The translations under genes were made by a program, and so were the position numbers. A stretch of 64,000 nucleotides of DNA from Gammaproteobacteria bacterium (GTDB taxonomy: Bacteria > Pseudomonadota > Gammaproteobacteria > Eutrophobiales > Eutrophobiaceae): NCBI GenBank assembly GCA_003250975.1, contig QKIY01000009.1, positions 30,727 to 94,726 on the forward strand, in the 5' to 3' direction. Of this stretch, positions 28,299 through 55,549 are shown in pieces. Numbering within the stretch: position 1 is the first letter of the stretch; the number at the start of each line of letters is the position of its first letter. A model generated the notes under the pieces. The model was not told where the DNA came from and ran no database searches. It was given only the letters and a program-made list of their open reading frames with translations.

Positions 28299-30344
28299 AT
28301 GACAGACCATCCTCGAAAAATCCTGGTAACCAGCGCCCTGCCCTACGCAAACGGGCCGATTCATATAGGGCACCTGGTAGAATACATCCAGACCGATATC
28401 TGGGTGCGTTTCCAGAAGATGCGTGGTCATGTTTGTCATTACGTCTGCGCCGATGATGCACATGGCACGCCGATCATGCTGTGTGCCCGGCAGGAAGGGA
28501 TCGAACCAGAAGCCCTGATTGCGCGGGTCATGGAAGAACATCAGCAGGATTTCGCGCAGTTCGCAGTGGCCTTTGACAACTATCACAGTACTCACTCGGA
28601 AGAAAACCGTGAGCTTGCTGAAATGATCTATCGTCGCCTAGCGGATGCGGGCCATATCAATCGGCGTACGATCAAGCAGGCATATGATGCGGTCAAGGAA
28701 ATGTTTTTGCCGGATCGCTTCATCCGCGGAGAATGTCCGAAATGCGGAGCCGCCGACCAGTATGGCGACAGTTGCGAGGTCTGCGGGGCAACCTATACAC
28801 CCACTGACCTCAAAAATGCCGTTTCGGCCCTTTCCGGCACAAAACCGGTCGAAAGGGAATCCGAGCATTATTTTTTCAAGCTGGCGGACTTCGAAACCCT
28901 GTTACGTGAATGGACACGGGGCGGACACTTGCAGGATGAGGTCAGCAATAAACTGGATGAATGGTTTGAGGCCGGGCTACAGGAATGGGACATCTCAAGG
29001 GACAAACCATATTTCGGATTCAGGATCCCGGACACAGATGACAAGTATTTCTACGTCTGGCTGGATGCGCCGATAGGTTACCTTGCAAGTTTCAAGAATC
29101 TCTGCGATCGCAGCGGGCTGGATTTTGATGAATACTTTGCTGCCGGCAGCACAACGGAACTCTACCATTTCATCGGCAAGGATATCATTTATTTTCATGC
29201 CCTGTTCTGGCCGGCCATGCTTTATGGTAGCAAGCTGCGTACACCGACTGCCATATTTGCCCACGGGTTTCTGACAGTAAATGGCCAGAAGATGTCAAAG
29301 TCGCGCGGGACATTCATCACGGCAAGGACCTACCTTGACCATCTCGACCCACAATACCTGCGCTACTACTTTGCGGCCAAACTTGGCAGCGGCGTGGAAG
29401 ATATCGATCTCAATTTCGAGGATTTCTGCAACCGCGTGAATGCCGACCTGGTCGGCAAGGTAGTTAATATAGCCAGTCGCTGTGCCGGCTTCATTAACAA
29501 GCGCTTTGATGGAAAACTGGCGGCCATGATTCACAGACCGGAATTGCTGGATGAATTCACCGCCGCAGGCGAGGCAATTGCCGATCACTACGAATCACGC
29601 GAGTACGCAAAGGCCATGCGCGAGATCATGGCACTGGCTGACCGCGCCAACCAGTATATCGATGAACTCAAGCCCTGGGTCATTGCAAAGGACACAGCGC
29701 GTGAGAATGAATTACAGTCTGTCTGTAGTATGGGGATAAATCTGTTCCGCTGTCTTATGATCTACCTGAAGCCGGTCCTGCCGGTGATGGCGGAACAGGG
29801 TGAAGCATTCCTGAATGTAAAACCCCTGCAATGGAGTGACTTAGGGTCCCCCTTGCTCGATCATTCAATCAATATATTCAAACCGCTGATGCAACGAGTA
29901 GAAATGGAGAAAATACATGCCATGATTGATGCTAGTAAAGATGACCTTTCACAGAAAACTGCTGGAGGTGGGAAACCCGAACCTGGTACGGGCCATCTTG
30001 CCGATAACCCGATCGATGATGAAATCACTATTGATGATTTCGCGAAAATTGATCTGCGTGTTGCAAAGATAGTCCGGGCCGAAAATGTGGAAGGTGCAGA
30101 TAAACTTCTGCAACTGACGCTTGATATCGGGGGCGAAACGCGTAATGTCTTCGCGGGAATCAGATCAGCCTATCAACCTGAGGAGCTGGAAGGAAGATTG
30201 ACTGTCGTGGTCGTCAACCTGGCGTCGCGTAAGATGCGATTCGGTGTATCTGAAGGAATGGTGCTCGCGGCAGGACCCGGTGGAAAAGAACTTTACATAC
30301 TGAGCCCGGATTCCGGCGCAGAACCCGGAATGAAAGTAAAGTAA
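28299..30344 (+). CDS. metG: Methionine--tRNA ligase.
   Basis: The protein has the HIGH motif ([12 protein letters not shown]), the KMSKS motif, a Zn knuckle (CPKCGA...CEVCG) and a C-terminal tRNA-binding (Trbp111-like) domain. Confidence 0.95.
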
Positions 30345-30354
30345 TATTATTTTT

Positions 30355-30930
30355 ATGTCCGGTTTTCTGCTAATCCTGCTCAGTACCGTACTTGCAAATA
30401 ATATTATTCTTCAACAGCTGGTCGGTGCAGACCCTGCGCTCGCGCTTGAGCGTAAACTGCAACTTGCTGTTGATGTCTCAATCACGCTTGTGGTGCTGTT
30501 GCCGCTGGTTAGCCTGGCCTGCAGTTTCATTGACGTGTTCCTGCTGGCGCCCTTGCAACTGGACTATCTGCGCCTGCTGGTATTCATATTGACTATCCTT
30601 ATTATCTGCCTCTCATTGAAATATACCATCCGGCTGATCCTGCCGCGCCTGTCTGCAAGGATGGATGACCTGTTGCCGTTTGTCGGCATCAATACCACTG
30701 TCCTCGGAATGGTATTGCTGGGCCGGGAGGCAGCGACAGACCTGGTTCATGCACTGGCGTACGGACTGGGTACCGCAACAGGCTTCGCCTTGGTCCTCTT
30801 GCCGCTCACGGCCGTGAGCGAACGGCTAGACGAGGCCGATGTCCCTGCCCCTTTCAGGGGCCTCCCGCTCCAGTTGATCAGCTTGGCCATTGTCTCCCTC
30901 GCCTTTCAGGGTTTTACCGGGATGTTTTAA
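30355..30930 (+). CDS. rnfA: Rnf/Rsx electron-transport complex subunit A homolog. It is atypical because the conserved Cys residues are absent.
   Basis: The 191-aa, 6-TM protein is collinear with RsxA/RnfA and shares ...ADVPAPFRG.... The family GLCP motif is replaced by GADP. The TNCAVLG motif is replaced by INTTVLG. The gene starts 10 bp after the metG stop. Confidence 0.75.
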   Translation: MSGFLLILLSTVLANNIILQQLVGADPALALERKLQLAVDVSITLVVLLPLVSLACSFIDVFLLAPLQLDYLRLLVFILTILIICLSLKYTIRLILPRLSARMDDLLPFVGINTTVLGMVLLGREAATDLVHALAYGLGTATGFALVLLPLTAVSERLDEADVPAPFRGLPLQLISLAIVSLAFQGFTGMF

Positions 30931-30934
30931 TCCG

Positions 30935-31441
30935 ATGGCCGGCATCCTGATCATACTGGCATTTGCCCTTCTGCTTGGAATGCTCCTGGGCTTGTCGGCT
31001 GATGATAGGGTGACCAGCGAAACTGACTACATCGAACAACTCGATACCATGTTGCCGCAGACACAGTGCGGCCAGTGCGGCTATTCAGGTTGCGCTCCCT
31101 ATGCGTCGGCAATATTGGCCGGTGAGGTGGGAATCGATCAGTGCCCACCGGGCGGGACAAAAATCGTCCGCGATCTCTCACGCCTGCTGGGGCTCGCAGG
31201 TCCATTTCTTAAAGCCATGGACGATAATGAGGCTGTTCGGAAGATTGCATTCATTGACGAAGACAGTTGTATTGGCTGTGTCAAATGTATTCGTGCCTGC
31301 CCTGTGGATGCAATAGTGGGTGCAGTTAAACAGATGCACACGGTGGTGCCTGAGTTGTGTACCGGTTGTGAGTTATGTGTGGCACCCTGTCCTGTAGATT
31401 GTATCAGCATGCAAACCGTCAACCCGATGCCGCTGACATGA
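30935..31441 (+). CDS. rnfB: Rnf complex subunit B (polyferredoxin).
   Basis: From the ATG (MAGILIILAF...) there is an N-terminal TM segment, the QCGQCGYSGCAPY cluster motif and two 4Fe-4S ferredoxin motifs (CIGCVKCIRACP and CTGCELCVAPCP). The ORF-track start is an upstream TTG. Confidence 0.85.
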   Translation: MAGILIILAFALLLGMLLGLSADDRVTSETDYIEQLDTMLPQTQCGQCGYSGCAPYASAILAGEVGIDQCPPGGTKIVRDLSRLLGLAGPFLKAMDDNEAVRKIAFIDEDSCIGCVKCIRACPVDAIVGAVKQMHTVVPELCTGCELCVAPCPVDCISMQTVNPMPLT

Positions 31442-31463
31442 ACCGTTCGGCAATTCTCAACAC

Positions 31464-32990
31464 ATGATCAGCGAAGGACTGCATCGATTTCCCGGAGGAC
31501 TGAAGCTTCCAACGGAAAAGGGCCTGTCCAATGGACACGAATCCCTGATTACGCCACTGCCAGACGAGATCATTCTGCCACTCAAGCAACATGTCGGGCA
31601 CCCGGCTGAACCTGTTATCTCTATTGGAGACAATGTCTACAAAGGTCAGGTCATTGCGAGGGCAAACGGATATGTCAGCCTGCCGGTCCATGCTAGTACC
31701 TCCGGGAAGATTCGAGATATCGGATTGTATGCCGTTCCCGACGCACTCGGGCTAAAAGCACCCTGTATCAAAATAGAACCGGATGGCCTTGACAGCTGGT
31801 GCGATATCCAAGGCGTGGGGGATTTTGCCTCCATGGACCCGCTGACCCTGCAACATGTAATCCGTGATGCGGGTATTTCCGGCATGGGTGGTGCAGCTTT
31901 CCCTGCCCACGTCAAACTGAAGGAAGGGACACAAACCGAGGTCAATGTATTGATCATCAATGCCGTGGAGTGCGAGCCATTCATTACCTGCGATGACCGT
32001 CTTATCCGGGAAAAACCAGGTTATATCGTGGCCGGTACACGGATGATACGTCATGCAGTACAGGCCCGACGTTGCATCATCGCCATAGAAGAAGACATGC
32101 CCGAGGCGCGCGATGCACTCTTGCCCCTGCTTGATGATGACATTGAATTGATCACGGTGCCCACCATCTATCCCCAGGGAGGGGAGAAACAACTTATCAG
32201 AGTACTGACCGGCCTTGACGTGCCAAGTAATGGTCTGCCCATTGACATAGGCATCATCATGCACAACGTTGCAACAGCGGCGGCCACCTATCGCGCAGTC
32301 CACCGTGGGGAACCCTTGATATCCCGTTATGTCACCGTCACCGGCCATGTTCCATCCCCTCGTAACTTGCAGGTCCTGCTGGGCACGCCAGTCAGGCATT
32401 GTGCCAATCAATGCGGCTATCAGGAGCGCTCTGGTGACAGCATTATCCTTGGCGGAGCAATGATGGGCACGCTGGTCAGGAACATGCACATGCCCGTAAT
32501 AAAATCGACCCATTGCATTTTGGTTAAACGCGTGCTTAATCGTGCACCTGAGATGCCCTGCATACGATGCGGGAGGTGTTCTGACGTGTGCCCTGCCCGG
32601 TTATTGCCCCAACAATTGTACTGGTACGCGCGCAGTCAGGATCAGGATCGCCTTAGGAAGCACCATTTGTTTGAATGCATAGAATGCGGATGTTGCTCCT
32701 ATGTCTGTCCAAGCAATATCCCGCTGGTCCACTATTACCGCGTAGCCAAGAATAAAATTAATCAACATGAGAAGTCCTTATTCGATGCGATGCAGGCAAG
32801 GCAACGCTATCTGACCAGGAAAGAACGTCTTGCAAGGGAGGCAGAACTTCAGTCAGAAAAGAGGCCGGATACTGAGGCTACAAAGACAGAAACACAGGAT
32901 AAAAAGGCCTATATCAGGGAGGCCGTGAAGCGGGGCCGGACTAGGCGCCGCAAGAATCACGGTCACAAAGGTGATGTATCGGATGAATAG
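31464..32990 (+). CDS. rnfC: Rnf complex subunit C (NADH/FMN-binding, 2x 4Fe-4S).
   Basis: The protein has the RnfC N-terminal domain, a glycine-rich NADH site (GMGGAAFP) and two ferredoxin CxxCxxCxxxCP motifs. It has a basic C-terminal tail. Confidence 0.85.
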   Translation: MISEGLHRFPGGLKLPTEKGLSNGHESLITPLPDEIILPLKQHVGHPAEPVISIGDNVYKGQVIARANGYVSLPVHASTSGKIRDIGLYAVPDALGLKAPCIKIEPDGLDSWCDIQGVGDFASMDPLTLQHVIRDAGISGMGGAAFPAHVKLKEGTQTEVNVLIINAVECEPFITCDDRLIREKPGYIVAGTRMIRHAVQARRCIIAIEEDMPEARDALLPLLDDDIELITVPTIYPQGGEKQLIRVLTGLDVPSNGLPIDIGIIMHNVATAAATYRAVHRGEPLISRYVTVTGHVPSPRNLQVLLGTPVRHCANQCGYQERSGDSIILGGAMMGTLVRNMHMPVIKSTHCILVKRVLNRAPEMPCIRCGRCSDVCPARLLPQQLYWYARSQDQDRLRKHHLFECIECGCCSYVCPSNIPLVHYYRVAKNKINQHEKSLFDAMQARQRYLTRKERLAREAELQSEKRPDTEATKTETQDKKAYIREAVKRGRTRRRKNHGHKGDVSDE

Positions 32991-33993
32991 TTCGTCCGCT
33001 TTCAGTTCACCCCATATCCACCAGGCACCCTCTGTGCAACAGGTCATGTGCCAAGTCATATTGGCCCTGGTACCCGGCATATTGTTCTCCACCTGGATAT
33101 ATGGCTGGGGGGTATTGATACAATGTTTCCTCGCCGTTTTATTTGCACAAGTGCTTGAAGCAATCATGCTGCGCTTGAGAAAACAGCCGCTTCAATTGTT
33201 CCTGTTTGATGGCAGTGCTGTGGTGACCGCACTTCTGTTTGCCCTGTGTATCACACCCTACACACCATGGTGGATAAACCTGGTCGGTATGGCATTTGCA
33301 ATTAGTATCGCCAAGCATTGTTACGGCGGGCTCGGACAGAATATTTTCAATCCAGCGATGGCAGCCTATATCTTTGTACTCTTGTGTTTTCCCCTTGAGC
33401 TTTCCCTGCATCCTGCTGCCGGACATTATCCGGGGCTGAGGGATACGCTGGAGATTATTGCGTTCGGAATCCAGGGTTATTCCGACGGGGTAAGCGGCGC
33501 CACCGTCCTGGCCACGCTCAAGACCGGTCTTGACGGCATGGGCATGATTTCTGAAATCCGGACCTCGCCGGTGTTTGGCCAGCTGGCCGGCAAGGGGTCT
33601 GAATGGATCCCGGTATTCTGGTTGGCAGGGGGAATATGGCTTGCCTATCAGAAGATAATCAAATGGCAGGTGCCTGCTGCCTTTCTTGCAGTACTGTTTG
33701 TCATCAGTCTCATATTTTACTGGTACGATGACAGTCACTATATCTCCCCGTTATTCACTTTACTTGCTGGTGGCAGCATGCTGGCGGCATTTTTTATCAT
33801 TACCGAGCCTGTATCTTCATCTACAACACCTGCCGGCAGGATAATTTTTGCATCAGGAGTCGCGATTATTGCCTATGTGATAAGAACCTGGGGGAATTAC
33901 CCTGATGGCGTAGCTTTTGCTGTGCTCCTAATGAATTTTTCCGCGCCGATTATCGACAGGTTGACACGCCCGAAGGTTGTCGGGGAGACATGA
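32974..33993 (+). CDS. rnfD: Rnf complex subunit D (NqrB-like, FMN-binding membrane subunit).
   Basis: The protein is collinear with RsxD and carries the flavinylation motif DGVSGATVLATLK. The start was taken at the ATG after the GTG at 32971. Confidence 0.85.
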   Translation: MYRMNSSSAFSSPHIHQAPSVQQVMCQVILALVPGILFSTWIYGWGVLIQCFLAVLFAQVLEAIMLRLRKQPLQLFLFDGSAVVTALLFALCITPYTPWWINLVGMAFAISIAKHCYGGLGQNIFNPAMAAYIFVLLCFPLELSLHPAAGHYPGLRDTLEIIAFGIQGYSDGVSGATVLATLKTGLDGMGMISEIRTSPVFGQLAGKGSEWIPVFWLAGGIWLAYQKIIKWQVPAAFLAVLFVISLIFYWYDDSHYISPLFTLLAGGSMLAAFFIITEPVSSSTTPAGRIIFASGVAIIAYVIRTWGNYPDGVAFAVLLMNFSAPIIDRLTRPKVVGET

Positions 33994-34616
33994 TGATGTC
34001 GTTTTACAGAAACATGCTACCGGTGGCCATAACAGCAGTGCTTTGTGTTACAACGCTGGTCATCCTTAATGCAAATACCAGAGAGACCATTAGGGCGAAT
34101 TCCCAAAAATACTTTTTTAAAGTTTTTGAAACCATGGTGCCGGTTGATTATAACAATTCAATTTATAATGATTATGTTGAGATAAAAGATCCTGCGTCGC
34201 CTGATGTACGAAATGCCGCGCGTGTATACCGGGTTAGGAAAGATAATATGAATATGGGTGTTATATATATGCCTGTTACAGCAGCGGGTTATAATGGTCC
34301 GATAAAACTTGCAATTAGCATATCAAAACCTGGCCGTATCATGGCAATAAAGGTGATCGAACAAAATGAATCAGATGGTCTGGGTGACCAAATCGATAAT
34401 GATAAAACGGACTGGGTTGATCAATTCAACACTCATTCATTACTTAATACTCCTGTTCAAAAATGGCAGATTAAGGAAGACGCCGGTGTTTTTGATGCCG
34501 TAAGCGGAGCAACCATTACCTCCCGGGCAGTTACTTTTGCCATCAGATTGACTCTTGAACACTATCAGTTAAATAGTGATATACTTTACAGGCAGGAATC
34601 AACAAGTGACCATTAA
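33990..34616 (+). CDS. rnfG: Rnf complex subunit G (NqrC-like, FMN-binding).
   Basis: The protein has an N-terminal TM segment and the flavinylation motif DAVSGATITSRAV. It has a GGGGAG RBS and overlaps the rnfD stop. Confidence 0.85.
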   Translation: MMMSFYRNMLPVAITAVLCVTTLVILNANTRETIRANSQKYFFKVFETMVPVDYNNSIYNDYVEIKDPASPDVRNAARVYRVRKDNMNMGVIYMPVTAAGYNGPIKLAISISKPGRIMAIKVIEQNESDGLGDQIDNDKTDWVDQFNTHSLLNTPVQKWQIKEDAGVFDAVSGATITSRAVTFAIRLTLEHYQLNSDILYRQESTSDH

Positions 34617-35305
34617 TGAGCCTTGTAGAAAAAAACAGAAATATAGTTTCCGATATAATCGATTATCTGAACAGTCATCCGGACTTTTTCCGGGATCACC
34701 CTGACCTACTTACTCGAATCAACATTCCCCATATCCCGGAACAGGAAATCAGTTCCCTGATTGAATACCAGGTCCATCGCCTTCGGCAACTGATCCTTGA
34801 TACAGAAACAAAGCTACAGTCTCTTGAGAAACAGACTGACATTAACAGCCTGTTCATAGAGGATGTGCTGGGATATTCACTGTCATTATACGAATGTGAA
34901 AATATCGAAACGTTATTCAACAAGGTAGATTGTGGACTGAAACAGTATTATTCCGCCGATCGGACAGCCCTGTTGGTATTCCCAAAGCCCGGCTGTATCA
35001 GGGCATTATCTGACTATGGCATCAAACCGGTTGATGATAAGGTCAGGTTTATGTTCACCGAGCTCTTCCACAGAGACAAGCCACTTTGCGACAGCCTTCA
35101 GGAAGAGCATCTGAAAATGCTTTTCGGAGAGGACACAGATGCTATCCGATCAACTGTTCTCCTACCATTACAGGGTGATTGCTGGCAAGCACTGCTAGTG
35201 TTGGGATCACATAACAGGAATTCCTACCGTCACGGCATCGAACTTGAGATGCTCATTTATATCAGCAATCTGATACAGCGCAAGCTCAATCATTTTATTG
35301 AATAA
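34616..35305 (+). CDS. DUF484 (YigA-like, GAF-fold) family protein.
   Basis: The 229-aa protein has the N-terminal motif IIDYLNSHPDFFRDHPDLL typical of DUF484. Its start overlaps the rnfG stop as TAATG, indicating translational coupling. Confidence 0.6.
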   Translation: MSLVEKNRNIVSDIIDYLNSHPDFFRDHPDLLTRINIPHIPEQEISSLIEYQVHRLRQLILDTETKLQSLEKQTDINSLFIEDVLGYSLSLYECENIETLFNKVDCGLKQYYSADRTALLVFPKPGCIRALSDYGIKPVDDKVRFMFTELFHRDKPLCDSLQEEHLKMLFGEDTDAIRSTVLLPLQGDCWQALLVLGSHNRNSYRHGIELEMLIYISNLIQRKLNHFIE

Positions 35306-39709: not shown

Positions 39710-39782
39710 TATTGTAACAGCACTATGGTGCTGATCAGCCTGATTGAATATCATGACCCTATACTTTACAAAGAGGCGGGTT

Positions 39783-41042
39783 ATGCCAGTTGATATTGCC
39801 ACTATTACCGCTGAAGCTCATACCGGTGAGGTAGATGCCCAGGTTCGCCTCGCGGAACTGTATGATCAGGGATTTGGCGTACCCGCCGACCCTGCTCATG
39901 CGGCCTACTGGTACCGAAAGGCTGCCGACCAGGGTTGTGCCAAGGGACAGCGGCGACTCGGGAAGATGTATGCCAACGGTCGTGGCGTGGAAAATGATTA
40001 TGTCTCAGCCGTACACTGGCTCAGCCTTGCAGCAAACCAGGATGATGCCTCTGCCCAGGCCAGCCTCGCCTGGTGTTACCAGCAAGGCCTGGGGCTGGAG
40101 AAGGATATCTATCAGGCCAGCAAGTGGTATCAGCGTGCCGCCAAACTGGGCCATCCTGGGGCCTGTTACAACTTGGGTTATATGTATGCCAATGGCTTCG
40201 GGGTGGAGCAGAATGATACGGAAGCCCTGCACTGGTACCGTCTGGCTGCCGATCAGGGCCATTGCAAGGCGCAACTGAATGCCGCACTGATGTATATCCA
40301 GGGGATCGGTACGGAAAAAAATGAAGCTGAAGGTGCAAGACTCTATCAACTAGCCGCCAACCAGGGCTATGTCAAAGCACAATATAATCTGGCCATGTTG
40401 TATGCCGGTGGTTACGGTGTGCCACAGGATGACTATGAATCACTCAAATGGCTTACGGAGGCTGCCAACAAGGGCTATGTAAGGGCACAGTTTAATCTCG
40501 CCCTTGCCTATATTTATGCCCTTGGAACTGACCAGAACTATGAAAAGGCCATCACTTGGCTCCAGCGCGCAGCAAGGCAGAATTACTCCAAGGCGTATTA
40601 CCAGCTTGGTTACCTTGTCGGGGAAGGGCTGGGGACAACAGCCGATCCCTATGAAGCCGCAAAATATTACCGTCTTGCTGCAAACCTGGGTTATGCACGT
40701 GCCCAATTCCGGCTGGGAAGGCTGTACGATATTGGCAACGGCGTAAATGTTGATCGTATTGCGGCACACTACTGGTATCTGCAGGCAGCACAACAGGGAT
40801 ACAGTAAGGCCCAGTTCATACTGGGGCTGAATTACGCCGGCCGTAAGGGTGCTCAAACTGATATGATCAGGGCATGTGCATGGTTATCGCTCGCCGCCAG
40901 GAATAACAACCAGAAGTTTCTATCAGTCCTGAACAAGATAGCAGCCAAACTGGATACGGATGAAATGATAGAGGCCAAGCAACTGGCTGACAGCCTTTGT
41001 CATGAAAAAATTGATGAAGAAAGCCTGATGGTTACCCTGTAA
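39783..41042 (+). CDS. Sel1-like repeat (SLR/TPR-like) protein, about 10 repeats, with no signal peptide.
   Basis: The protein has tandem ~36-aa repeats of the form AQxxLGxMYxxGxGVxxDxxxAxxWYxxAAxQG. The start was chosen at an ATG with an AGAGG RBS; the ORF-track start is a TTG at 39744. Confidence 0.75.
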   Translation: MPVDIATITAEAHTGEVDAQVRLAELYDQGFGVPADPAHAAYWYRKAADQGCAKGQRRLGKMYANGRGVENDYVSAVHWLSLAANQDDASAQASLAWCYQQGLGLEKDIYQASKWYQRAAKLGHPGACYNLGYMYANGFGVEQNDTEALHWYRLAADQGHCKAQLNAALMYIQGIGTEKNEAEGARLYQLAANQGYVKAQYNLAMLYAGGYGVPQDDYESLKWLTEAANKGYVRAQFNLALAYIYALGTDQNYEKAITWLQRAARQNYSKAYYQLGYLVGEGLGTTADPYEAAKYYRLAANLGYARAQFRLGRLYDIGNGVNVDRIAAHYWYLQAAQQGYSKAQFILGLNYAGRKGAQTDMIRACAWLSLAARNNNQKFLSVLNKIAAKLDTDEMIEAKQLADSLCHEKIDEESLMVTL

Positions 41043-41289: not shown

Positions 41290-41379
<90 letters not shown>

Positions 41380-41574: not shown

Positions 41575-42621
41575 ATGTTTCCCCGTCAATTTAAATCACT
41601 TATTCCAGCAGTAATATTCCTGGTATCCCTATATATGGCCGCCTGCGACAGAAACCAGGCAGGTCATGTGGAAACTTTTTCGGGCCTGACCATGGGGACA
41701 AGCTATAGCATCAAGTTTATTCCACCGAAAAATGTCAATCTGACGGCAATTAAACAGGATGTCGAGAACCGTCTGCAAAATATCAATGCCAGCATGTCCA
41801 CCTACCTGGAAGATTCGGAATTATCATTAATCAACAAGACCGGAGCAAATGTCTGGGTCCCTGTATCAAACGACCTGTTTAAGGTACTGGAAACTGCCAG
41901 AAATATCAGTATTAAGAGCGAGGGGGCGTTCGATATAACCGTTGGCCCCCTGGTTAACCTCTGGGGATTCGGACCTGAAAAGCGACCCATCGTCACACCG
42001 GATGAAAGGGTTATAAAAAAACTCCTGAATAATACCGGCATCAACAAGATCAAACTGGATAAAAATAACAAAGCCATTAAAAAGGCACATGATTCTGTTT
42101 ACATCGATTTATCCGCTATTGCAAAAGGATTTGCCGTAGACAGTATCGCCTCACTATTACATGAAAAATACGGTCTGAATAGTTACCTCGTAGAGATTGG
42201 CGGAGAAGTCAGCGCGTCGGGATATAATCAGGGAGGGGAAAGATGGCGAGTCGGGATTGAGAGGCCTGAGCCTGAAAGACGGGAAATCCAGCGAATTATC
42301 CGGCTCGAGGAAATAGCAATGGCAACTTCTGGAGGTTATCGGAACTATTTTGATCTGGAAGGGAAACGGTATTCCCATACAATAAATCCTGCTACCGGGC
42401 AACCTGTTACCCATAATCTTGAGTCAGTAACGGTGCTCCACAAGAGCGCCATGATCGCCGATGCATGGGCTACGGCAATGCTGGTTATGGGCGTAGAACA
42501 GGCAAAAATTAAGGCGGAAGAATATCAACTTGCTGTTCTCATGGTAGCTAAACTGGACAACGAGCGGCATCTAGAGATCATGAATAATCATTTCAGAAAA
42601 TACCTGCTGCCTTCAGAATAA
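41575..42621 (+). CDS. apbE: FAD:protein FMN transferase ApbE (flavinylates RnfD/RnfG/NqrBC-type SGAT motifs).
   Basis: The protein has a lipoprotein-type signal (LYMAAC) and is collinear with the ApbE family (AFDITVGPL..., conserved Mg/FAD-binding residues). Confidence 0.85.
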   Translation: MFPRQFKSLIPAVIFLVSLYMAACDRNQAGHVETFSGLTMGTSYSIKFIPPKNVNLTAIKQDVENRLQNINASMSTYLEDSELSLINKTGANVWVPVSNDLFKVLETARNISIKSEGAFDITVGPLVNLWGFGPEKRPIVTPDERVIKKLLNNTGINKIKLDKNNKAIKKAHDSVYIDLSAIAKGFAVDSIASLLHEKYGLNSYLVEIGGEVSASGYNQGGERWRVGIERPEPERREIQRIIRLEEIAMATSGGYRNYFDLEGKRYSHTINPATGQPVTHNLESVTVLHKSAMIADAWATAMLVMGVEQAKIKAEEYQLAVLMVAKLDNERHLEIMNNHFRKYLLPSE

Positions 42622-43946: not shown

Positions 43947-46451
43947 TTAGTCTTTTTTATCCAACTGTGATTCAATATCTGAAAACAGGTTTTTTGTAGC
44001 ATTTTCAGCTTCTCTTTTTGCGGCCTCAGCCCTTTCCTTGATACGTTTAACATGTTCCGAATGTGATATCACCCTTGACGCACTTCGTTCCAGTCTATCC
44101 TGCTCATCCATAAACATGGCGAGATCTTCTTCTACCTGCCTTCCGAGATCATCGTTTTTCAACTGCTGAACCTCTATCTCCTGACGTCTGATCTGTTCTG
44201 CGGTCTGCACATTAACCTTGGCCTGATGTGCATTTTCCAGGTTCTTTTCAGCCTGCCTCAACTTGTATTCAGCCATCCTCATCTGATCTTCAGCTTCTTT
44301 CCTGGCCTTTTCATCAAGGGCATCGGCCTGTGCAGCACGAAGTTTTTGTGCTTCAAGGGCCGCTGCAGCCTTGGCTGCTTCAGCTTCCCTTTTGGTCCTT
44401 TCTATGTCATTCAGAACTTCCTTTATCTTGCTGGATTCCTTTTCCAGCTGCTTCTTTTCATGTTCAAGCCTTGCACGTTCCTTGGCTCTTTCTTCTTCAA
44501 ACTGCTTTTTATATTCATCTATAATGCTTTTTGCTTCTTCTGCTGCTGCCTTGCGTGCTGCTTCAGCCATGGCATTTTTCTTGTTAGCCTCTTCCAGCTC
44601 GGCATTTGCTTTAGCTACTTCCTCGGCGAGTGTACGTCTTTCTGCCTCAAGCTTGGCCTTTGCCTTGGCCTGGGCCTCCTTTTCCATATTAGCCTGCTCT
44701 TCACGTTTCCTGCTGGCCTCTTCTTCCAGGGCCTTATGCGATTCTTCAAGTTTCTTTTTAACCTCATCGGCACTCTGTAATTTTTCCCTGGCCTCGGCAG
44801 CTTCCTGTTCAAGCTTTTCCCGCTCCTTCCTTATTTGCTCCTCAGCCTCCTGCTTCATTTTTTGGAGCTTCTCCATCTCCTCGGTATTCTTGGAATAAAT
44901 CTCCTCCAGTTTCTTCTTTTCGTCGGCAAGACGTTTTTCCGTTTCTTCCTTTAATTTTGCAATCTTTCGGGCTTCTTCTTCCTTGAACCTTCTGGCCTCT
45001 TCTTCGGCTGCTTTCTTTTCAATCTCGAGTTTTTTTCTCTCATCTTCCAGTTCCTGTTTCTTGCGCCTTATATCAGTTGTATCCTCATCGTCCCTGGCTT
45101 CGGCCAGCCTATGACTAGTGTCCTCGAGCTTCAATTCATTCTTGGCAATGTCCGCATCGATCACGGCTGAACGTACTGCCGGATCATCATTATCCTCTGA
45201 TTCAAATACAGGAGCCCGTTGTGTTCTGCGTTTTGGCTTGCCTTCCTTTGAGGATGGTTCCGGGCGTGTGGTTTTTGCCGGAGCCGGCCTGTCTTTTTTC
45301 AGAGTAGGTGCTTCTGCCTTCGCTGGAGTCAGTTTTTCTTTTTTCGGTGCAGTCGCTTCTGCCTCTGAACCCAGTGACGGTATCGAAGCCAATCCGCCTT
45401 TTAGGACGCTGACATTAAATCCGTTATTAATCAGGGTGAAAGCAGCAGCTGAACTGCGACCACCTGAATCACAGCAGATAATATATTGTTTGTTCTTATC
45501 CAGTTTATCCAGCTGCGCCCGCAACATGTTAAATGGAATATTGATGCTGCCCTTAATACTGGATTCCTTAAATTCATCTTTAAAACGGACATCAAGCCAG
45601 ACTGCACCAGCTTCCACCAAGGTCTTGCCCTGATCATAAGTGACTTCGCTCATTGAAGGTATTTTTACCAGTGTGATGAAGTTTTCCTTGCTGAGCTTCA
45701 TCAAGATACCATCGGTCTTCATAATGACAGACGCATTGCGTTTACCCCCCATCAGCAACGCTTCTTCACCAAAACTGTCACCAGGAGACAAATCAGCAAG
45801 CTTGACCGGCTTGGAACCGGGGGATGGTATTCTGGAAACTTCACACTGGCCATCCTGAATAATGTAATAACTGTCACCGGGATCGCCCTGCTTGATTACC
45901 GTATTACCTGCCTTGAATTCCAGGGGCTCAAGCATGACAAATAATTGCTGGATATTGGCGGTTGGCAACTGGCTGAAGATTTCGGATTGCAACATCTTGG
46001 TCATCCAGTCGACCGCATCATCTTCATCCCCGATTTCGCTGACTTCAAAATGTCGACTGGCGGTTATAGTTGTACTATCCGACTTGTCTGCAACAATTGT
46101 CCTGTCGACAGCAGCCTTATCCAGTTGGAGAACCATGCAGTCTTCCACGGCCCTGGCGGTAAACTGGCGTGGCAAAAGGCGAGCCATGGCATAGCGTGCA
46201 CTGTCTGTACCTCCTGTAATGGTACTTTTCACTTCCCTGTTCGAAAGCATTTCGATCACGCCCTCTAGCAGGTAATACGTAAAATTGTCTCTGTCTCCCT
46301 GTTTAAAGACGACGTTCCTTTTCCCGTACTTGAACACCTTCCCCATCTGGATAATCTCGTTCTGGGCCTGGGTAGACAGCTCATCGAACGGCACCAAGGT
46401 CCTTATCAGTTCAACATACGGTTTTTTGTCTAGTTCTTTATTAAAGATCAT
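43947..46451 (-). CDS. Large multidomain protein with two cyclic-nucleotide-binding (CAP-family) domains, a rhodanese domain and a ~450-aa K/E-rich coiled-coil tail.
   Basis: The first CNB domain is degenerate (residues ~30-150). The second is canonical, with GDSFGEEALLMGGKRNASVIMK. The rhodanese domain has an active-site Cys in ICCDSGGRS. From ~aa 380 to the end the sequence is low-complexity, charged and heptad-like (EEARRFKEEEARKIAKLKEETEKRLADEKKKLEE...). Confidence 0.7.
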   Translation of the reverse strand: MIFNKELDKKPYVELIRTLVPFDELSTQAQNEIIQMGKVFKYGKRNVVFKQGDRDNFTYYLLEGVIEMLSNREVKSTITGGTDSARYAMARLLPRQFTARAVEDCMVLQLDKAAVDRTIVADKSDSTTITASRHFEVSEIGDEDDAVDWMTKMLQSEIFSQLPTANIQQLFVMLEPLEFKAGNTVIKQGDPGDSYYIIQDGQCEVSRIPSPGSKPVKLADLSPGDSFGEEALLMGGKRNASVIMKTDGILMKLSKENFITLVKIPSMSEVTYDQGKTLVEAGAVWLDVRFKDEFKESSIKGSINIPFNMLRAQLDKLDKNKQYIICCDSGGRSSAAAFTLINNGFNVSVLKGGLASIPSLGSEAEATAPKKEKLTPAKAEAPTLKKDRPAPAKTTRPEPSSKEGKPKRRTQRAPVFESEDNDDPAVRSAVIDADIAKNELKLEDTSHRLAEARDDEDTTDIRRKKQELEDERKKLEIEKKAAEEEARRFKEEEARKIAKLKEETEKRLADEKKKLEEIYSKNTEEMEKLQKMKQEAEEQIRKEREKLEQEAAEAREKLQSADEVKKKLEESHKALEEEASRKREEQANMEKEAQAKAKAKLEAERRTLAEEVAKANAELEEANKKNAMAEAARKAAAEEAKSIIDEYKKQFEEERAKERARLEHEKKQLEKESSKIKEVLNDIERTKREAEAAKAAAALEAQKLRAAQADALDEKARKEAEDQMRMAEYKLRQAEKNLENAHQAKVNVQTAEQIRRQEIEVQQLKNDDLGRQVEEDLAMFMDEQDRLERSASRVISHSEHVKRIKERAEAAKREAENATKNLFSDIESQLDKKD
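43950..45314. repeat. Low-complexity GAA/AAG-rich coding repeat region (the K/E-rich coiled coil) within the 834-aa CDS.
   Basis: Purine-rich codon runs on the coding strand produce many long spurious antisense ORFs (44226-45858). Confidence 0.5.
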
Positions 46452-51025: not shown

Positions 51026-53149
51026 ATGAAGATCAATAAAACACACCTGCTGGCGAATACTGTGCTGTGTATCCTGGAGAGTCTCCTTGCAGCGATTATA
51101 GGCACTGTATTTCTGGTGTTGCTTGTCCTGTTGCTGTCAGGCGTCGCCAGCGCCGAAACCACGGAAGGTTTGGCTGCAACGGACATCATCACTGTGCGTG
51201 ACGCCGGGGAAGTCACACGCGGTACCCTGTTATTCCGACACTCAGAAAATTTCCGCAGCGCCCCGATCCTAGAAACCGGGGTCCAGATGGATATCACGGG
51301 GATGATTGTCCGTGTCAGGGTGCGGCAACGCTTTCACAACCCTGACACGGTCTGGCAGGAAGGGATCTACGTATTCCCACTACCGGAAGATGCCGCAGTG
51401 GATCATCTGCGCATGCAGATCGGCGAGCGTGTGATTGAAGGACAAATCAGGGAAAAAGAAACTGCAAGGAAAGAATATCAGCAGGCGCGCGACAGCGGTA
51501 AAAAGGCCAGCCTGGTAGAACAGGAACGTCCGAATATCTTCACCACCTCGGTGGCAAATATCGCACCGGAGGAAGAGATCACGGTAGAGATCGAGTACCA
51601 GCAGACAGTACGTTATGACTCGGGTGAATTTCGCCTGCGTTTCCCGATGGTCGTGGCACCACGCTATATCCCTGGCAAGACAGTTATAAAAGGGTTCAGC
51701 GGCACTGGCTGGGCGGTCAACACGGATCAGGTCGAGGATGCGGCCCGCATCACTCCCCCTGTCCTGTATCCCGACGAGAGGTTAATCAATCCCGTGATGA
51801 TCAGGATAAAACTCAATGCAGGATTCCCGCTGGAACAGATCACCAGTTCCTACCACAACATCCTGATCGATCAAATCGACTCTTCTACGTACAACATTCA
51901 ATTGGAGCAACAGACCATGGCAGATCGCGACTTTGAACTTTACTGGCTGCCTGAATCGAAAGACGCACCCCAGGCCGCCTTCTTCAGGGAACATCAGAAA
52001 AGCAGGGATTACGGACTGATCATGATGCTCCCACCAATGCAAGAGCGTGCCGAGACCCTGAACCGCGAGGTGATCTTTGTTATAGATACCTCAGGTTCAA
52101 TGGCAGGCACTTCCATCGTGCAAGCCAAGGCGGCCCTGGTTCTGGCACTCGAACGTCTGAAACCGGGTGACAGTTTCAATATCATTGAATTCAATTCAAA
52201 CACCAGCCAATTATTCAACTGGCCCCACCCGTTCAATCACCAGTCATTGCGGCAAGCAAAAGAATATGTGCGTCGTTTACAGGCAGATGGCGGTACCGAG
52301 ATGTTACCAGCCCTGGATTTGGCACTGACAGATAACAATGATCGTTCAGCGGTCAGACAGGTGATCTTTCTCACCGACGGCAGCATCGGCAATGAGAATG
52401 CCCTGTTTCGAACCATCAGCCGGAAACTGGGCAGGAGTCGCTTGTTCACCATCGGTATTGGCTCCGCGCCTAATTCACACTTCATGACCCGCGCCGCCCG
52501 ATTCGGACGCGGAACCTATACGTACATCGGCGATGTGAATGAAGTGCAGGAAAAAATGGCCACCCTGTTCAGTAAACTGGAAAGTCCGGTACTTACCGAC
52601 ATCCAGATAGACTGGCAAGGCGCCGATAATGTTGAAGCCTGGCCGCAAAAGATCCCGGACCTCTACCTGGGCGAACCACTGCTGGTCAGTGTCGCGTCCA
52701 CTACTCTACCGGAAAAAATAAATATCTCTGGCGTCGTCTCCGGTGCGCTCTGGCAAAGCACCATGCAACTCGACGGCCATGGTCAGCATGACGGGGTCCA
52801 TGTCCTCTGGGCGCGCAAGAAGATTGCAGCGCTCATGGATAACCTTAACCAGGTCTCGGAAAAAAATTCCCTGCGGCAGGAGATCATTGATACCGCCCTT
52901 CGCCATCATCTGGTAAGCCGCTTCACCAGTCTGGTCGCCATTGATGTTACGACGGCGAGAGATAAAGGCGTTCCGTTCCACTCTTCTGCCTTGCCAGTCA
53001 ACCTTCCTGAAGGATGGAAATATGAAAAGGTGTTCGGCCAGTTGCCACGCACAGCAACCGATGCCGAGCAGAAAATACTGATCGGGCTGTTGCTATTGTT
53101 GTTCAGTGTGTTCCTCGTACTGGGCCGCCACTATGTCTTACCCGACTAA
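51026..53149 (+). CDS. Sortase target protein of the marine-proteobacterial type, with VIT and von Willebrand factor A domains and a C-terminal LPxTG-like sorting signal.
   Basis: The 707-aa protein has a signal peptide, a VIT domain, and a vWA domain with the MIDAS motif (DTSGSM). The C-terminus is ...GQLPRTATDAEQKILIGLLLLLFSVFLVLGRHYVLPD: LPRTAT, then a hydrophobic TM segment, then a charged tail. Confidence 0.75.
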   Translation: MKINKTHLLANTVLCILESLLAAIIGTVFLVLLVLLLSGVASAETTEGLAATDIITVRDAGEVTRGTLLFRHSENFRSAPILETGVQMDITGMIVRVRVRQRFHNPDTVWQEGIYVFPLPEDAAVDHLRMQIGERVIEGQIREKETARKEYQQARDSGKKASLVEQERPNIFTTSVANIAPEEEITVEIEYQQTVRYDSGEFRLRFPMVVAPRYIPGKTVIKGFSGTGWAVNTDQVEDAARITPPVLYPDERLINPVMIRIKLNAGFPLEQITSSYHNILIDQIDSSTYNIQLEQQTMADRDFELYWLPESKDAPQAAFFREHQKSRDYGLIMMLPPMQERAETLNREVIFVIDTSGSMAGTSIVQAKAALVLALERLKPGDSFNIIEFNSNTSQLFNWPHPFNHQSLRQAKEYVRRLQADGGTEMLPALDLALTDNNDRSAVRQVIFLTDGSIGNENALFRTISRKLGRSRLFTIGIGSAPNSHFMTRAARFGRGTYTYIGDVNEVQEKMATLFSKLESPVLTDIQIDWQGADNVEAWPQKIPDLYLGEPLLVSVASTTLPEKINISGVVSGALWQSTMQLDGHGQHDGVHVLWARKKIAALMDNLNQVSEKNSLRQEIIDTALRHHLVSRFTSLVAIDVTTARDKGVPFHSSALPVNLPEGWKYEKVFGQLPRTATDAEQKILIGLLLLLFSVFLVLGRHYVLPD

Positions 53150-53759
53150 AAAAATGCTGTACCTCTGTTTACTCACCACCCTCTCCTTTTGCGGCTTGTG
53201 GCAGATGGGACAGGGCACCTATATCCACGCCAAGGCAATCCTCGCGCAATACCTCCTCGAGTCGGCCTGGTCAGAAACACTGCTGGGGGTAAAGAAGGAG
53301 GTGAAACCATGGCCCTGGGCAGATACCTGGCCAGTCAGCCGGCTCACCGCACTCCGCCTTGGAATCAGCCGCATCGTCCTGGCCGGGGCAAGTGGTTCAT
53401 CACTTGCCTTCGGCCCAGGACATCTTTTTGGCACAGCCTATCCAGGTGAACAGGGTAATAGTGTAATTGCTGGGCACAGGGATACACATTTCCGGTTTTT
53501 ACAACAGCTGACAGACGGCGACATCCTGCAACTTGAGACGGAAGACGGAACCAACAGGCAATACCAGGTTATCCAGACTCGGGTTATTCACGAGAGCGAG
53601 GTGCAATATCTGCAAGAAACACCTGATAACCGATTAACACTGATTACCTGTTTCCCCTTTAACAGCCCCACTCCGGGCGGACCTCTGCGCTTCGTGGTAA
53701 TCGCCATGGAGCTACCAAGGACCGCAAATGGTACTCACACACATGATTCATTGATCTGA
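53133..53759 (+). CDS. Sortase of the class found in the proteobacterial dedicated sortase system.
   Basis: The protein has a catalytic His (VIAGHRDTHF), the catalytic Cys in TLITCFPF and a conserved Arg (LRFVVIAM). The start was taken at the ATG overlapping the target-gene end; the ORF-track start is an upstream GTG. Confidence 0.8.
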   Translation: MSYPTKKMLYLCLLTTLSFCGLWQMGQGTYIHAKAILAQYLLESAWSETLLGVKKEVKPWPWADTWPVSRLTALRLGISRIVLAGASGSSLAFGPGHLFGTAYPGEQGNSVIAGHRDTHFRFLQQLTDGDILQLETEDGTNRQYQVIQTRVIHESEVQYLQETPDNRLTLITCFPFNSPTPGGPLRFVVIAMELPRTANGTHTHDSLI

Positions 53760-54624: not shown

Positions 54625-55437
54625 CTAGGTCTGGCTGTCTTCCTCCCTGCCATATAGTTCTAGATATTCCCTGGCCCGCTCGCGGGCCAGGGCAAGGTCA
54701 TCAGGGTCCATCTTGGATTCCAGGATCGCAATATTCAGGCCGGCTTGCTCCGCGCCACCCGCTTCCGCCAGCTTGAACCAGGCATAGGACTCTATCCAGT
54801 CCTTCTCCACTCCCTGGCCGTCATGGTACATTGCGCCAAGACTGTTCTGTGCCTCAGCCAGACCCTGCTCCGCCGCTTTCCTGTACCAGAAAACGGCTCT
54901 CTCAAAATCCTGTTTCACACCCTTTCCGAGAAAATACATCAGGCCCAGGTTGTTTTGCGCCCTTTCACCCCCCAGGTCTGCAGCCCTGCGCCACCATTTA
55001 ATAGCCTCTTCAATATCCGGATCGATCCCATCCCCATGGTAATAGATCAGGGCCAGGTTCTGCTGGGAATCAATGTAATCTTTCGCTGCTGCCCGTTTAT
55101 ACCATTCAACCGCCTTGGGAACATCGCGGGGGACCGTAATGCCATTATGGTAGAATAGCGCTACATTGTGGGCTGATCCGGCAGACCCCTGCATTGCCGC
55201 CTGTTTATACAGGGTCAATGCCTTGGCATAGTCCTGATCTACTCCCTGCCCCTCCCGGTACATGTTGGCAAGATAATACTGTGACTTCATATCGCCTTCC
55301 TCGGCCAGGAGGGTAAACCCATCAAGGGCCGCAGCATAGTCTCCGGCGGTATAGGCCTTATAAGCCTGGTCATATTCTGTCCCGGCATACAGGGATGCGG
55401 ACATTAGGGATATCAAAATCAGGAAGAGTGCTTTCAT
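54625..55437 (-). CDS. Secreted Sel1-like repeat protein.
   Basis: The protein has the signal peptide MKALFLILISLMSASLYA|G, from an internal ATG with an AGGA RBS. It has about 6 Sel1 repeats (AQxNLGxMYxxGxGVxxD...). The ORF track begins 19 codons upstream. Confidence 0.75.
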   Translation of the reverse strand: MKALFLILISLMSASLYAGTEYDQAYKAYTAGDYAAALDGFTLLAEEGDMKSQYYLANMYREGQGVDQDYAKALTLYKQAAMQGSAGSAHNVALFYHNGITVPRDVPKAVEWYKRAAAKDYIDSQQNLALIYYHGDGIDPDIEEAIKWWRRAADLGGERAQNNLGLMYFLGKGVKQDFERAVFWYRKAAEQGLAEAQNSLGAMYHDGQGVEKDWIESYAWFKLAEAGGAEQAGLNIAILESKMDPDDLALARERAREYLELYGREEDSQT

Positions 55438-55549
55438 CGAGCATTCCTGTGATTTACATAGAAGGGACAATGATAAGTAGTATAACCACGACATGGACGT
55501 GAAAGGCTTTGGTATTGATCCGCTCCCATCATAGGTTCCCCTGAGAAAC

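Follow-up and report, generated by a model that had tools for sequence, protein, structure and literature searches.

An rnf operon without rnfE and without the RnfA cluster ligands in an uncultured gammaproteobacterial lineage

The 64,000-nt stretch of metagenomic gammaproteobacterial DNA analyzed here in full (contig QKIY01000009.1; hereafter the window) carries, at 30355-34616 on the + strand, an operon for subunits of the Rnf complex, which in its canonical form is an ion-pumping ferredoxin:NAD+ oxidoreductase encoded by rnfABCDGE. The window operon has no rnfE, and its RnfA-type six-helix membrane subunit has lost both Cys ligands of the intramembrane [2Fe-2S] cluster; we refer to this protein as the Cys-less RnfA. 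We show that the E-less, Cys-less state is clade-wide and old in an uncultured gammaproteobacterial lineage. All five rnf genes are under purifying selection, and RnfA has turned from the slowest- to the fastest-evolving subunit. The reading we favor, at about even odds (a probability of roughly 0.5), is that the RnfA/RnfE module has been dismantled, that the cofactor sites of RnfB, RnfC, RnfD and RnfG have been kept, and that the remaining wire would serve as a single-path conduit.

Loss of the RnfA cluster ligands and absence of rnfE from the operon

Alignments of the window RnfA made with phmmer against three solved RnfA chains, 8AHX_A (A. vinelandii), 7ZC6_A (C. tetanomorphum) and 9ERI_A (A. 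woodii), are gapless across both ligand motifs, with GADP paired with GLCP or GICP and GINTTVLG paired with TTNCAVLG. The DNA agrees, reading ggt gca gac cct at 30424-30435 (G24 A25 D26 P27) and ggc atc aat acc act gtc ctc gga at 30685-30708 (G111 to G118). Counted on the 9ERI_A row, D26 and T114 of the window protein correspond to C25 and C113 of A. woodii RnfA, K89 to E88, G111 to T110 and I112 to T111. The [2Fe-2S] ligands in the membrane are RnfA C25 and C113 together with RnfE C25 and C108; A. woodii RnfA E88 belongs to an ion-pair network with RnfE R67 and E115, and the A. woodii T110G mutant fails to grow (Kumar et al. 2025, PMC11889175). The position equivalent to E88, an RnfE contact, is Lys, Arg or Gln in the clade and Lys89 in the window, a reversal of charge, and the position equivalent to T110, on the ion path, is Gly in the Cys-less RnfA. 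An earlier reading of this DNA from its letters (the original prediction) had proposed the Cys-to-Asp and Cys-to-Thr substitutions, which these alignments and the codons confirm. Its premise about which residues ligate the cluster is likewise sound, as the RnfA pair and the RnfE pair hold the [2Fe-2S] center that relays electrons between RnfB and RnfG (PMC11889175, PMC12174285).

In other respects the protein remains recognizably an RnfA. It passes the Rnf-Nqr superfamily model PF02508 and misses the curated subfamily cut-offs, scoring 127 bits (127.0) against 229.3 for TIGR01943 (rnfA) and 133.3 bits against 240 for NF003481 (RsxA). The NCBI annotation of one clade member's RnfA as "hypothetical protein" fits these missed cut-offs. 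An AlphaFold2 model built on the clade alignment has a mean predicted local distance difference test score (pLDDT) of 81, and in the PDB it is matched best by RnfA chains and next by NqrE chains, at template modeling (TM) scores of 0.63-0.68 (0.65-0.68 for the RnfA chains). Cytoplasmic loops have more Lys and Arg than periplasmic ones; this excess (the K+R bias) amounts to +6 for the window protein, ranges from +4 to +9 across the clade and from +3 to +5 in canonical RnfA, and gives a fixed, N-out topology. Among 30 RnfA sequences of the clade, 24 positions are invariant, D26 among them; the second Cys position is variable (Thr, Ser, Ala or Val).

The other four subunits retain their cofactor sites. 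RnfB, RnfC, RnfD and RnfG exceed their curated rnf subfamily cut-offs (Table 1), and only the RnfA-like protein falls well below. RnfB has an N-terminal membrane helix, one four-Cys iron-sulfur domain and two [4Fe-4S] ferredoxin motifs, with 12 of 12 Cys present in the alignment. RnfC has GMGGAAFP and both CxxCxxCxxxCP motifs, and the flavinylation motifs read DGVSGATVLA in RnfD and DAVSGATITS in RnfG. Conservation is clade-wide for the 12 RnfB Cys, both RnfC cluster motifs, the flavin mononucleotide (FMN)/NADH motif of RnfC and the flavinylation Thr of RnfD and RnfG. The subfamily scores, the motif alignments and the complete Cys sets thus bear out the original description of these four proteins as intact, SGAT motifs included.

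The gene order metG-rnfA-rnfB-rnfC-rnfD-rnfG-DUF484, with the five rnf genes closely spaced, follows from the list of open reading frames (ORFs) and the Pfam and NCBIfam assignment of each, in agreement with the order A-B-C-D-G first proposed. The metG-rnfA junction is common to all related loci, canonical and variant, and the longer synteny dcd-mrp-metG-rnfA is kept in variant and canonical relatives, so the window operon is the orthologous gammaproteobacterial rnf/rsx locus. On this synteny we reject a paralogous second rnf cluster, which the original prediction had held in reserve should a canonical rnfE be found elsewhere with another rnfA. The place that rnfE takes in canonical operons is occupied here by a DUF484 gene, which lies 3' of rnfG in most E-less loci and was not detected in the canonical loci compared. 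The rnfG stop codon overlaps the start of DUF484 (34613-34619), an arrangement that suggests translational coupling. Two start sites deserve comment. The rnfB start is taken as ATG, in agreement with the gene call on an identical JGI contig, although an upstream TTG at 30890 is likewise open; for rnfD an alternative ATG at 32983 is possible.

The search for rnfE used hidden Markov models (HMMs) built from RnfA-family sequences and from 60 RnfE sequences, run against six-frame ORFs of at least 60 aa across the whole 64 kb. Both matched the rnfA-like gene alone, and no rnfE was found in the window, as had been noted originally. Nor was a second Rnf-Nqr gene present in the fetched flanks (up to 10 kb, contig permitting) of nine related E-less loci. 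Wherever loci with a Cys-less RnfA of the G-x-D-P type extend far enough downstream, all are without rnfE. In the genome set, rnfE lies about 4.3 kb downstream in every canonical locus that extends far enough, apart from a Candidatus Marithrix locus (L058) that has rnfABC only; in the metagenome set rnfE is downstream in 39 of 42 canonical loci, and the nearest canonical relative of the window operon reads metG-rnfABCDGE. Two low-GC metagenomic loci, L123 and L144, have a canonical RnfA (GLCP, TNC) and rnfABCDG followed by queA, with no adjoining rnfE, which in these two cases is presumably encoded elsewhere. A search of a 5.8-billion-protein database with the RnfE profile returned canonical sequences as its best 8000 candidates; these are not tied to genomes and are uninformative on a relocated rnfE.

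A selected clade and its further erosion

A search of 5.8 billion proteins yielded 63 relatives of the Cys-less RnfA. In the 47 closest, G-[ATSV]-D-P and IN-[TSAV]-[TAL] replace the Cys motifs, and the next group is canonical. Genomic contexts were examined for the four contigs that carry the window protein, for four further proteins, and for clade loci found by scanning a single genome of each GTDB species. An RnfA with G[ATS]DP and IN[TSAV][TA]VLG, the same gene order and the lack of rnfE in the flanks are common to nine distinct loci, drawn from different assemblies and studies, which are monophyletic in rough neighbor-joining trees of both RnfD and RnfG. A metagenome scan with the Cys-less RnfA alignment, which used a generic C-terminal pattern, returned 80 loci that are mostly canonical and serve mainly as a control set; it added three short clade members (L098-L100).

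Selection was assessed from the ratio of nonsynonymous to synonymous substitution rates (dN/dS), computed by the Nei-Gojobori method (NG86). For the window and L005, its nearest sequenced relative, dS is saturated for five of six genes, and closer within-clade pairs with dS of 1-2 were used instead. The ratio is 0.09-0.12 for rnfA, rnfB, rnfC and rnfD and 0.12-0.20 for rnfG, compared with 0.04-0.08 for metG, and values this low mean that the genes encode selected proteins. The clade is by no means shallow, its MetG proteins being 64-86% identical. Identity of the Cys-less RnfA within the clade is 42-80%, and in most comparisons RnfB, RnfC and RnfD of that pair are each more alike. Canonical operons show the reverse order, with RnfA 55-93% identical where RnfC and RnfD are 38-83% identical.

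Some members of the clade have lost more. In L017 and L018, which come from two assemblies and different studies, and in L026, rnfC is absent, leaving rnfA-B-D-G. In L017 and L018 about 50 codons from the 5' end of rnfC survive as a decaying remnant, with a stop codon inside it in L018, and the two loci share a frameshift in rnfB just past the membrane helix. In L026 the deletion is clean and RnfB has a C-terminal extension. Because L017 and L026 lie on different branches of the tree, the two rnfC losses are independent. In the rnfC-deleted sublineage, dN/dS is 0-0.24 for rnfA, rnfD and rnfG, so purifying selection on these genes persists.

Similar changes have taken place independently outside the clade. 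The metG-linked operons of L094, L095 and L096 have a Cys-less RnfA and keep rnfE, in the order rnfE-nth. The RnfE of L094 and of L095 retains the first Cys alone; that of L096 is N-terminally truncated and Cys-free, and in L096 rnfC is gone and RnfB is without its anchor. The L096 RnfB also ends in an Arg/Ala/Gln-rich tail of about 240 aa that appears similar to the C-terminal tail of RnfC. A further locus, L097 (GCA_025450675.1), has rnfABCDG and no rnfE; its RnfA carries Asp in place of the first ligand and keeps the second Cys and the RnfE-contact Glu. It may represent an intermediate state, and suggests that the change of Cys25 to Asp and the disappearance of rnfE were the earliest steps; the RnfD and RnfG trees disagree on where it falls with respect to the clade. 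A broader view comes from the clade profile, run as an exhaustive HMM search against 1.84 billion cluster representatives. Among the best 150 matches, both Cys are missing in 63, the first in 29 and the second in 3, and both are present in 55, so that 95 of 150 are without one or both, counts that are not frequencies, as the query favors variants and canonical RnfA collapses into few clusters. The first position is recurrently Asp, Gly, Ser, Tyr or Thr. By these sequences, RnfA Cys loss is clearly recurrent and reaches beyond one clade.

A proposed single-path conduit and its alternatives

In all solved complexes the [2Fe-2S] cluster is the only relay between RnfB/NqrF and the periplasmic FMN of RnfG/NqrC (PMC12174285, PMC11889175). 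In A. woodii redox-gated Na+ binding is located at the cluster, and RnfD is assigned to electron transfer only (PMC11889175). Loss of the cluster removes the relay between RnfB and RnfG and, on the A. woodii model, the redox-gated ion site, and with them the semicircular ferredoxin-to-NAD+ path and its coupling. Judged against the solved structures, the Cys-less RnfABCDG cannot act as a canonical ion-pumping ferredoxin:NAD+ oxidoreductase, and the complex must work differently from previously studied Rnf. RnfD carries electrons over the membrane to RnfG (PMC12174285, PMC11889175), and by the structures in PMC11889175 the RnfC-RnfD-RnfG cofactor chain is a complete transmembrane path. The retained chain would run from NADH through the FMN and two [4Fe-4S] clusters of RnfC to the riboflavin and then the FMN of RnfD and on to the FMN of RnfG. 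Such a one-way conduit would pass electrons by a single path between the cytoplasm and a periplasmic partner. RnfB could provide a second cytoplasmic entry or exit, and would be the sole one in rnfC-deleted sublineages. RnfG makes contact chiefly at the RnfA/E cavity, and its helix is bound by that of RnfB (PMC11889175); for this reason the Cys-less RnfA may have been kept mainly to scaffold the RnfG and RnfB membrane helices. Of the three outcomes the original prediction had listed (a degenerate complex, RnfE encoded elsewhere, and a variant electron path), the last fits best, as an interpretation of the retained cofactor sites.

The alternative in which RnfE persists would have rnfE relocated in the genome and still paired with the Cys-less RnfA, giving a six-subunit Rnf whose A/E module is cluster-free or differently liganded. 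L123 and L144 indicate that split arrangements exist, since their RnfA keeps both Cys without an adjoining rnfE, and L094, L095 and L096 indicate that a cluster-free A/E pair can persist, with an RnfE of one or no Cys beside a Cys-less RnfA. We nevertheless regard relocation as unlikely, because neither the window nor the flanks of the nine related loci contain the gene, the RnfE-pairing residue E88 is reversed to Lys in the clade, and RnfA evolves faster than the other subunits. An rnfE elsewhere would in any case not restore the [2Fe-2S] cluster to an RnfA without ligands. The change from E88 to K89, the acceleration of RnfA and the decay of rnfE in place in other lineages argue for real loss of rnfE, or at least for a lost partnership. 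Decay of the operon as a whole, which would make it a non-functional relic heading for deletion and its intact frames only a matter of time, seems to us similarly improbable. The accelerated evolution of RnfA fits decay, as do the independent deletions of rnfC in L017/L018, L026 and the unrelated L096, the rnfB frameshift and rnfC remnant shared by L017 and L018, and the many RnfA-family representatives without one or both Cys. Against it stand a dN/dS of about 0.1 across five genes at dS 1-2, the low ratios of rnfA, rnfD and rnfG even after deletion of rnfC, the conservation of RnfB, RnfC, RnfD and RnfG cofactor ligands over the divergence seen in MetG, and the invariance of D26 and 23 more RnfA positions. 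For the source genome itself, dN/dS and motif conservation lead us to reject a pseudogene or relic; given the sublineage losses, decay survives as a minority explanation. The degenerate complex of the original prediction is therefore not supported in the sense of a dead relic, as the genes are intact and selected, and holds in part as a trend visible in the acceleration of RnfA, the rnfC deletions and the rnfB frameshift.

Two other accounts can be set aside with greater assurance. RnfA and RnfE are inverted-topology paralogues of one ancestral gene (PMC12174285), and a dual-topology protein would appear as a singleton gene, so that an antiparallel homodimer of the Cys-less RnfA might replace the RnfA/RnfE pair in a reversion to the ancestral state. 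The K+R bias is far from zero, however, and in the clade at least as strong as in canonical RnfA, as expected of a fixed topology, and there is no Cys from which to build a cluster in any case; we reject the homodimer as very improbable. The metagenomic source might also raise the concern that the missing rnfE and the substitutions are artefacts of assembly, binning or sequencing. Independent assemblies refute this and leave it a negligible chance. Four independent contigs, found among JGI, NCBI and Logan assemblies, carry the identical protein and gene order; they differ from the window by at most one site within the compared operon stretch, the two longer ones each at one site across 4951 bp; the same architecture recurs in the nine distinct loci.

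Several points weigh against the conduit as we have drawn it. The absence of rnfE is established for the window and the fetched flanks, not genome-wide, and L123 and L144 demonstrate that absence from the operon does not prove absence from the genome. A pure RnfC-RnfD-RnfG path leaves the 12 Cys of RnfB, at a dN/dS of about 0.09, unexplained, as it does the feeding of the rnfC-less sublineages L017/L018 and L026. The periplasmic acceptor of the conduit is hypothetical, and the scaffold role assigned to RnfA leaves the invariant membrane Asp26 unexplained. The two deletions of rnfC within the clade and the single frameshift of rnfB suggest that what function remains can be dispensed with in some settings. 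We put forward tentatively a more ambitious version of the conduit, which we consider rather less probable than the conduit itself. The Cys-less RnfABCDG, or RnfABDG in some members, would be a functional enzyme of a new kind, a single-path transmembrane conduit derived from Rnf by subtraction, in which NADH, or ferredoxin via RnfB, feeds the RnfD and RnfG flavins and then a periplasmic acceptor, and Asp26 would be a fixed cation or proton site that replaces the negatively charged cluster. Because RnfA Cys have been lost many times, the variants would on this proposal constitute a widespread unrecognized class and not decay.

Gene content of the window and relation to known systems

The features of the operon, its neighbors and the comparison loci are collected in Table 1. 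The original observation that apbE lies about 7 kb away is correct, and the related locus L005 likewise has apbE close to its operon. The remainder of the window consists of ordinary chromosomal housekeeping genes. The gene for an 834-aa protein with two cyclic-nucleotide-binding domains and a rhodanese domain, whose C-terminal half of about 450 aa is Lys/Glu/Ala-rich and coiled-coil-like in appearance, accounts for a local AT skew of -0.33 and GC skew of -0.18. One Sel1-repeat protein is assigned by Pfam and another is apparent, judged by its sequence alone. The genes for a VIT/VWA protein and, next to it, a sortase-domain protein look like a proteobacterial sortase system. A tRNA-Ser (CGA) lies between the apparent Sel1-repeat gene and apbE, and no other RNA family or rRNA has a match in the window.

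Table 1. Coordinates of the operon, neighboring genes and comparison loci (positions in the window unless a locus is named)
Feature	Location	Positions	Strand	Basis or remark
metG (methionyl-tRNA synthetase)	window	28299-30344	+	ORF; directly 5' of rnfA
rnfA (RnfA-type six-helix membrane subunit, both [2Fe-2S] Cys ligands gone)	window	30355-30930	+	PF02508, 90.8 bits (gathering threshold 23.8)
codon GAC, Asp26, at the Cys25 ligand position of solved RnfA	window	30430-30432	+	alignment and DNA read
codon ACC, Thr114, at the Cys113 ligand position	window	30694-30696	+	alignment and DNA read
rnfB	window	30935-31441	+	TIGR01944, 211.6 bits (cut-off 68.7)
rnfC (NADH/FMN-binding subunit, two [4Fe-4S] motifs, intact)	window	31464-32990	+	TIGR01945, 530.4 (cut-off 245.95); PF01512, PF13375
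rnfD (polytopic membrane flavoprotein)	window	32971-33993	+	TIGR01946, 372.6 bits (cut-off 207)
rnfG (membrane-anchored periplasmic FMN-binding subunit)	window	33990-34616	+	TIGR01947, 128 bits (cut-off 102)
DUF484 (YigA-like) gene, at the place of rnfE in canonical operons	window	34616-35305	+	PF04340, 104.1 bits
apparent Sel1-repeat protein	window	39744-41042	+	sequence
tRNA-Ser (CGA)	window	41290-41379	+	
apbE (flavin transferase needed for RnfD/RnfG flavinylation)	window	41575-42621	+	PF02424, 304.8 bits; NF007774
834-aa protein	window	43947-46451	-	
VIT/VWA protein, then sortase-domain protein	window	51026-53759		
Sel1-repeat protein	window	54625-55494	-	Pfam
rnfC-less locus	L017	1445-3208		
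rnfC-less locus	L018	4913-6685		
rnfC-less locus	L026	3977-5644		
Cys-less RnfA with rnfE	L094	8343-13590		
Cys-less RnfA with rnfE	L095	7351-12336		
Cys-less RnfA with rnfE	L096	2468-6343		
rnfABCDG without rnfE	L097	8001-12338		
canonical RnfA without adjoining rnfE	L123	1511-6727		
canonical RnfA without adjoining rnfE	L144	6986-12165		

A literature search found no published account of an Rnf that is missing RnfE or the RnfA Cys, and a 2025 review describes the cofactors of the membrane subunits as "strictly conserved" (PMC12174285). The A/E cluster is generally regarded as central to electron transfer across the membrane and to ion pumping alike. The clade described here contradicts this assumed invariance of the Rnf/Nqr membrane core. 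A selected clade without the A/E module also indicates that the RnfC-RnfD-RnfG half, with RnfB, is useful by itself, and it offers a natural knock-out in which the contributions of RnfA/E and of RnfD to ion translocation can be told apart. There is a practical consequence for annotation. Metabolic reconstructions that score Rnf as present from rnfB, rnfC, rnfD and rnfG would wrongly assign ferredoxin-linked energy conservation to such genomes, and the variant nature of this RnfA accounts for its naming as a hypothetical protein by pipelines.

The closest known system is RnfABCDGE/RsxABCDGE itself, solved as 8AHX, 9ERI and 7ZC6, which shares the dcd-mrp-metG-rnfA locus and the order A-B-C-D-G with the window operon. 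Four subunits pass the curated cut-offs with their iron-sulfur and flavinylation motifs, and the Cys-less RnfA keeps the fold and topology of the family. The differences are the missing rnfE, the replacement of RnfA Cys25 by Asp, Cys113 by Thr, E88 by Lys and T110 by Gly, and an RnfA that falls below the RnfA/RsxA cut-offs and is the least conserved subunit instead of the most conserved. Na+-NQR (NqrABCDEF) has a homologous core (NqrB/RnfD, NqrC/RnfG and NqrE/RnfA) and a precedent for partial loss in NqrA, an RnfC homologue that lost its cofactors but stayed in the complex. It differs in keeping NqrD, NqrE and the [2Fe-2S] cluster and in having NqrF in place of RnfB, and the window proteins score far higher on rnf than on nqr models.

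The NQR/RNF-like partial systems of Actinobacteria and the Candidate Phyla Radiation (CPR), for which one-way export of electrons from cytosolic NAD(P)H has been proposed (Meheust et al. 2021, eLife, PMC8238504), invite comparison with the proposed conduit. They too keep one of the two transmembrane paths, an NqrB/RnfD-type subunit with an extracytosolic FMN-binding domain, and have ApbE nearby (PMC8238504). In those systems NqrB/RnfD (PF03116) is fused to an NqrF-type NAD-binding domain (PF00175), whereas the 340-aa RnfD of the window matches PF03116 only, has no PF00175 fusion and is accompanied by a separate canonical RnfC. Unlike them, the window operon retains RnfB and a remnant of the A/E module in RnfA, and it arose when a canonical gammaproteobacterial operon recently lost genes. 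The Cys-less RnfABCDG is thus analogous to the NQR/RNF-like systems and yet stands outside that group.

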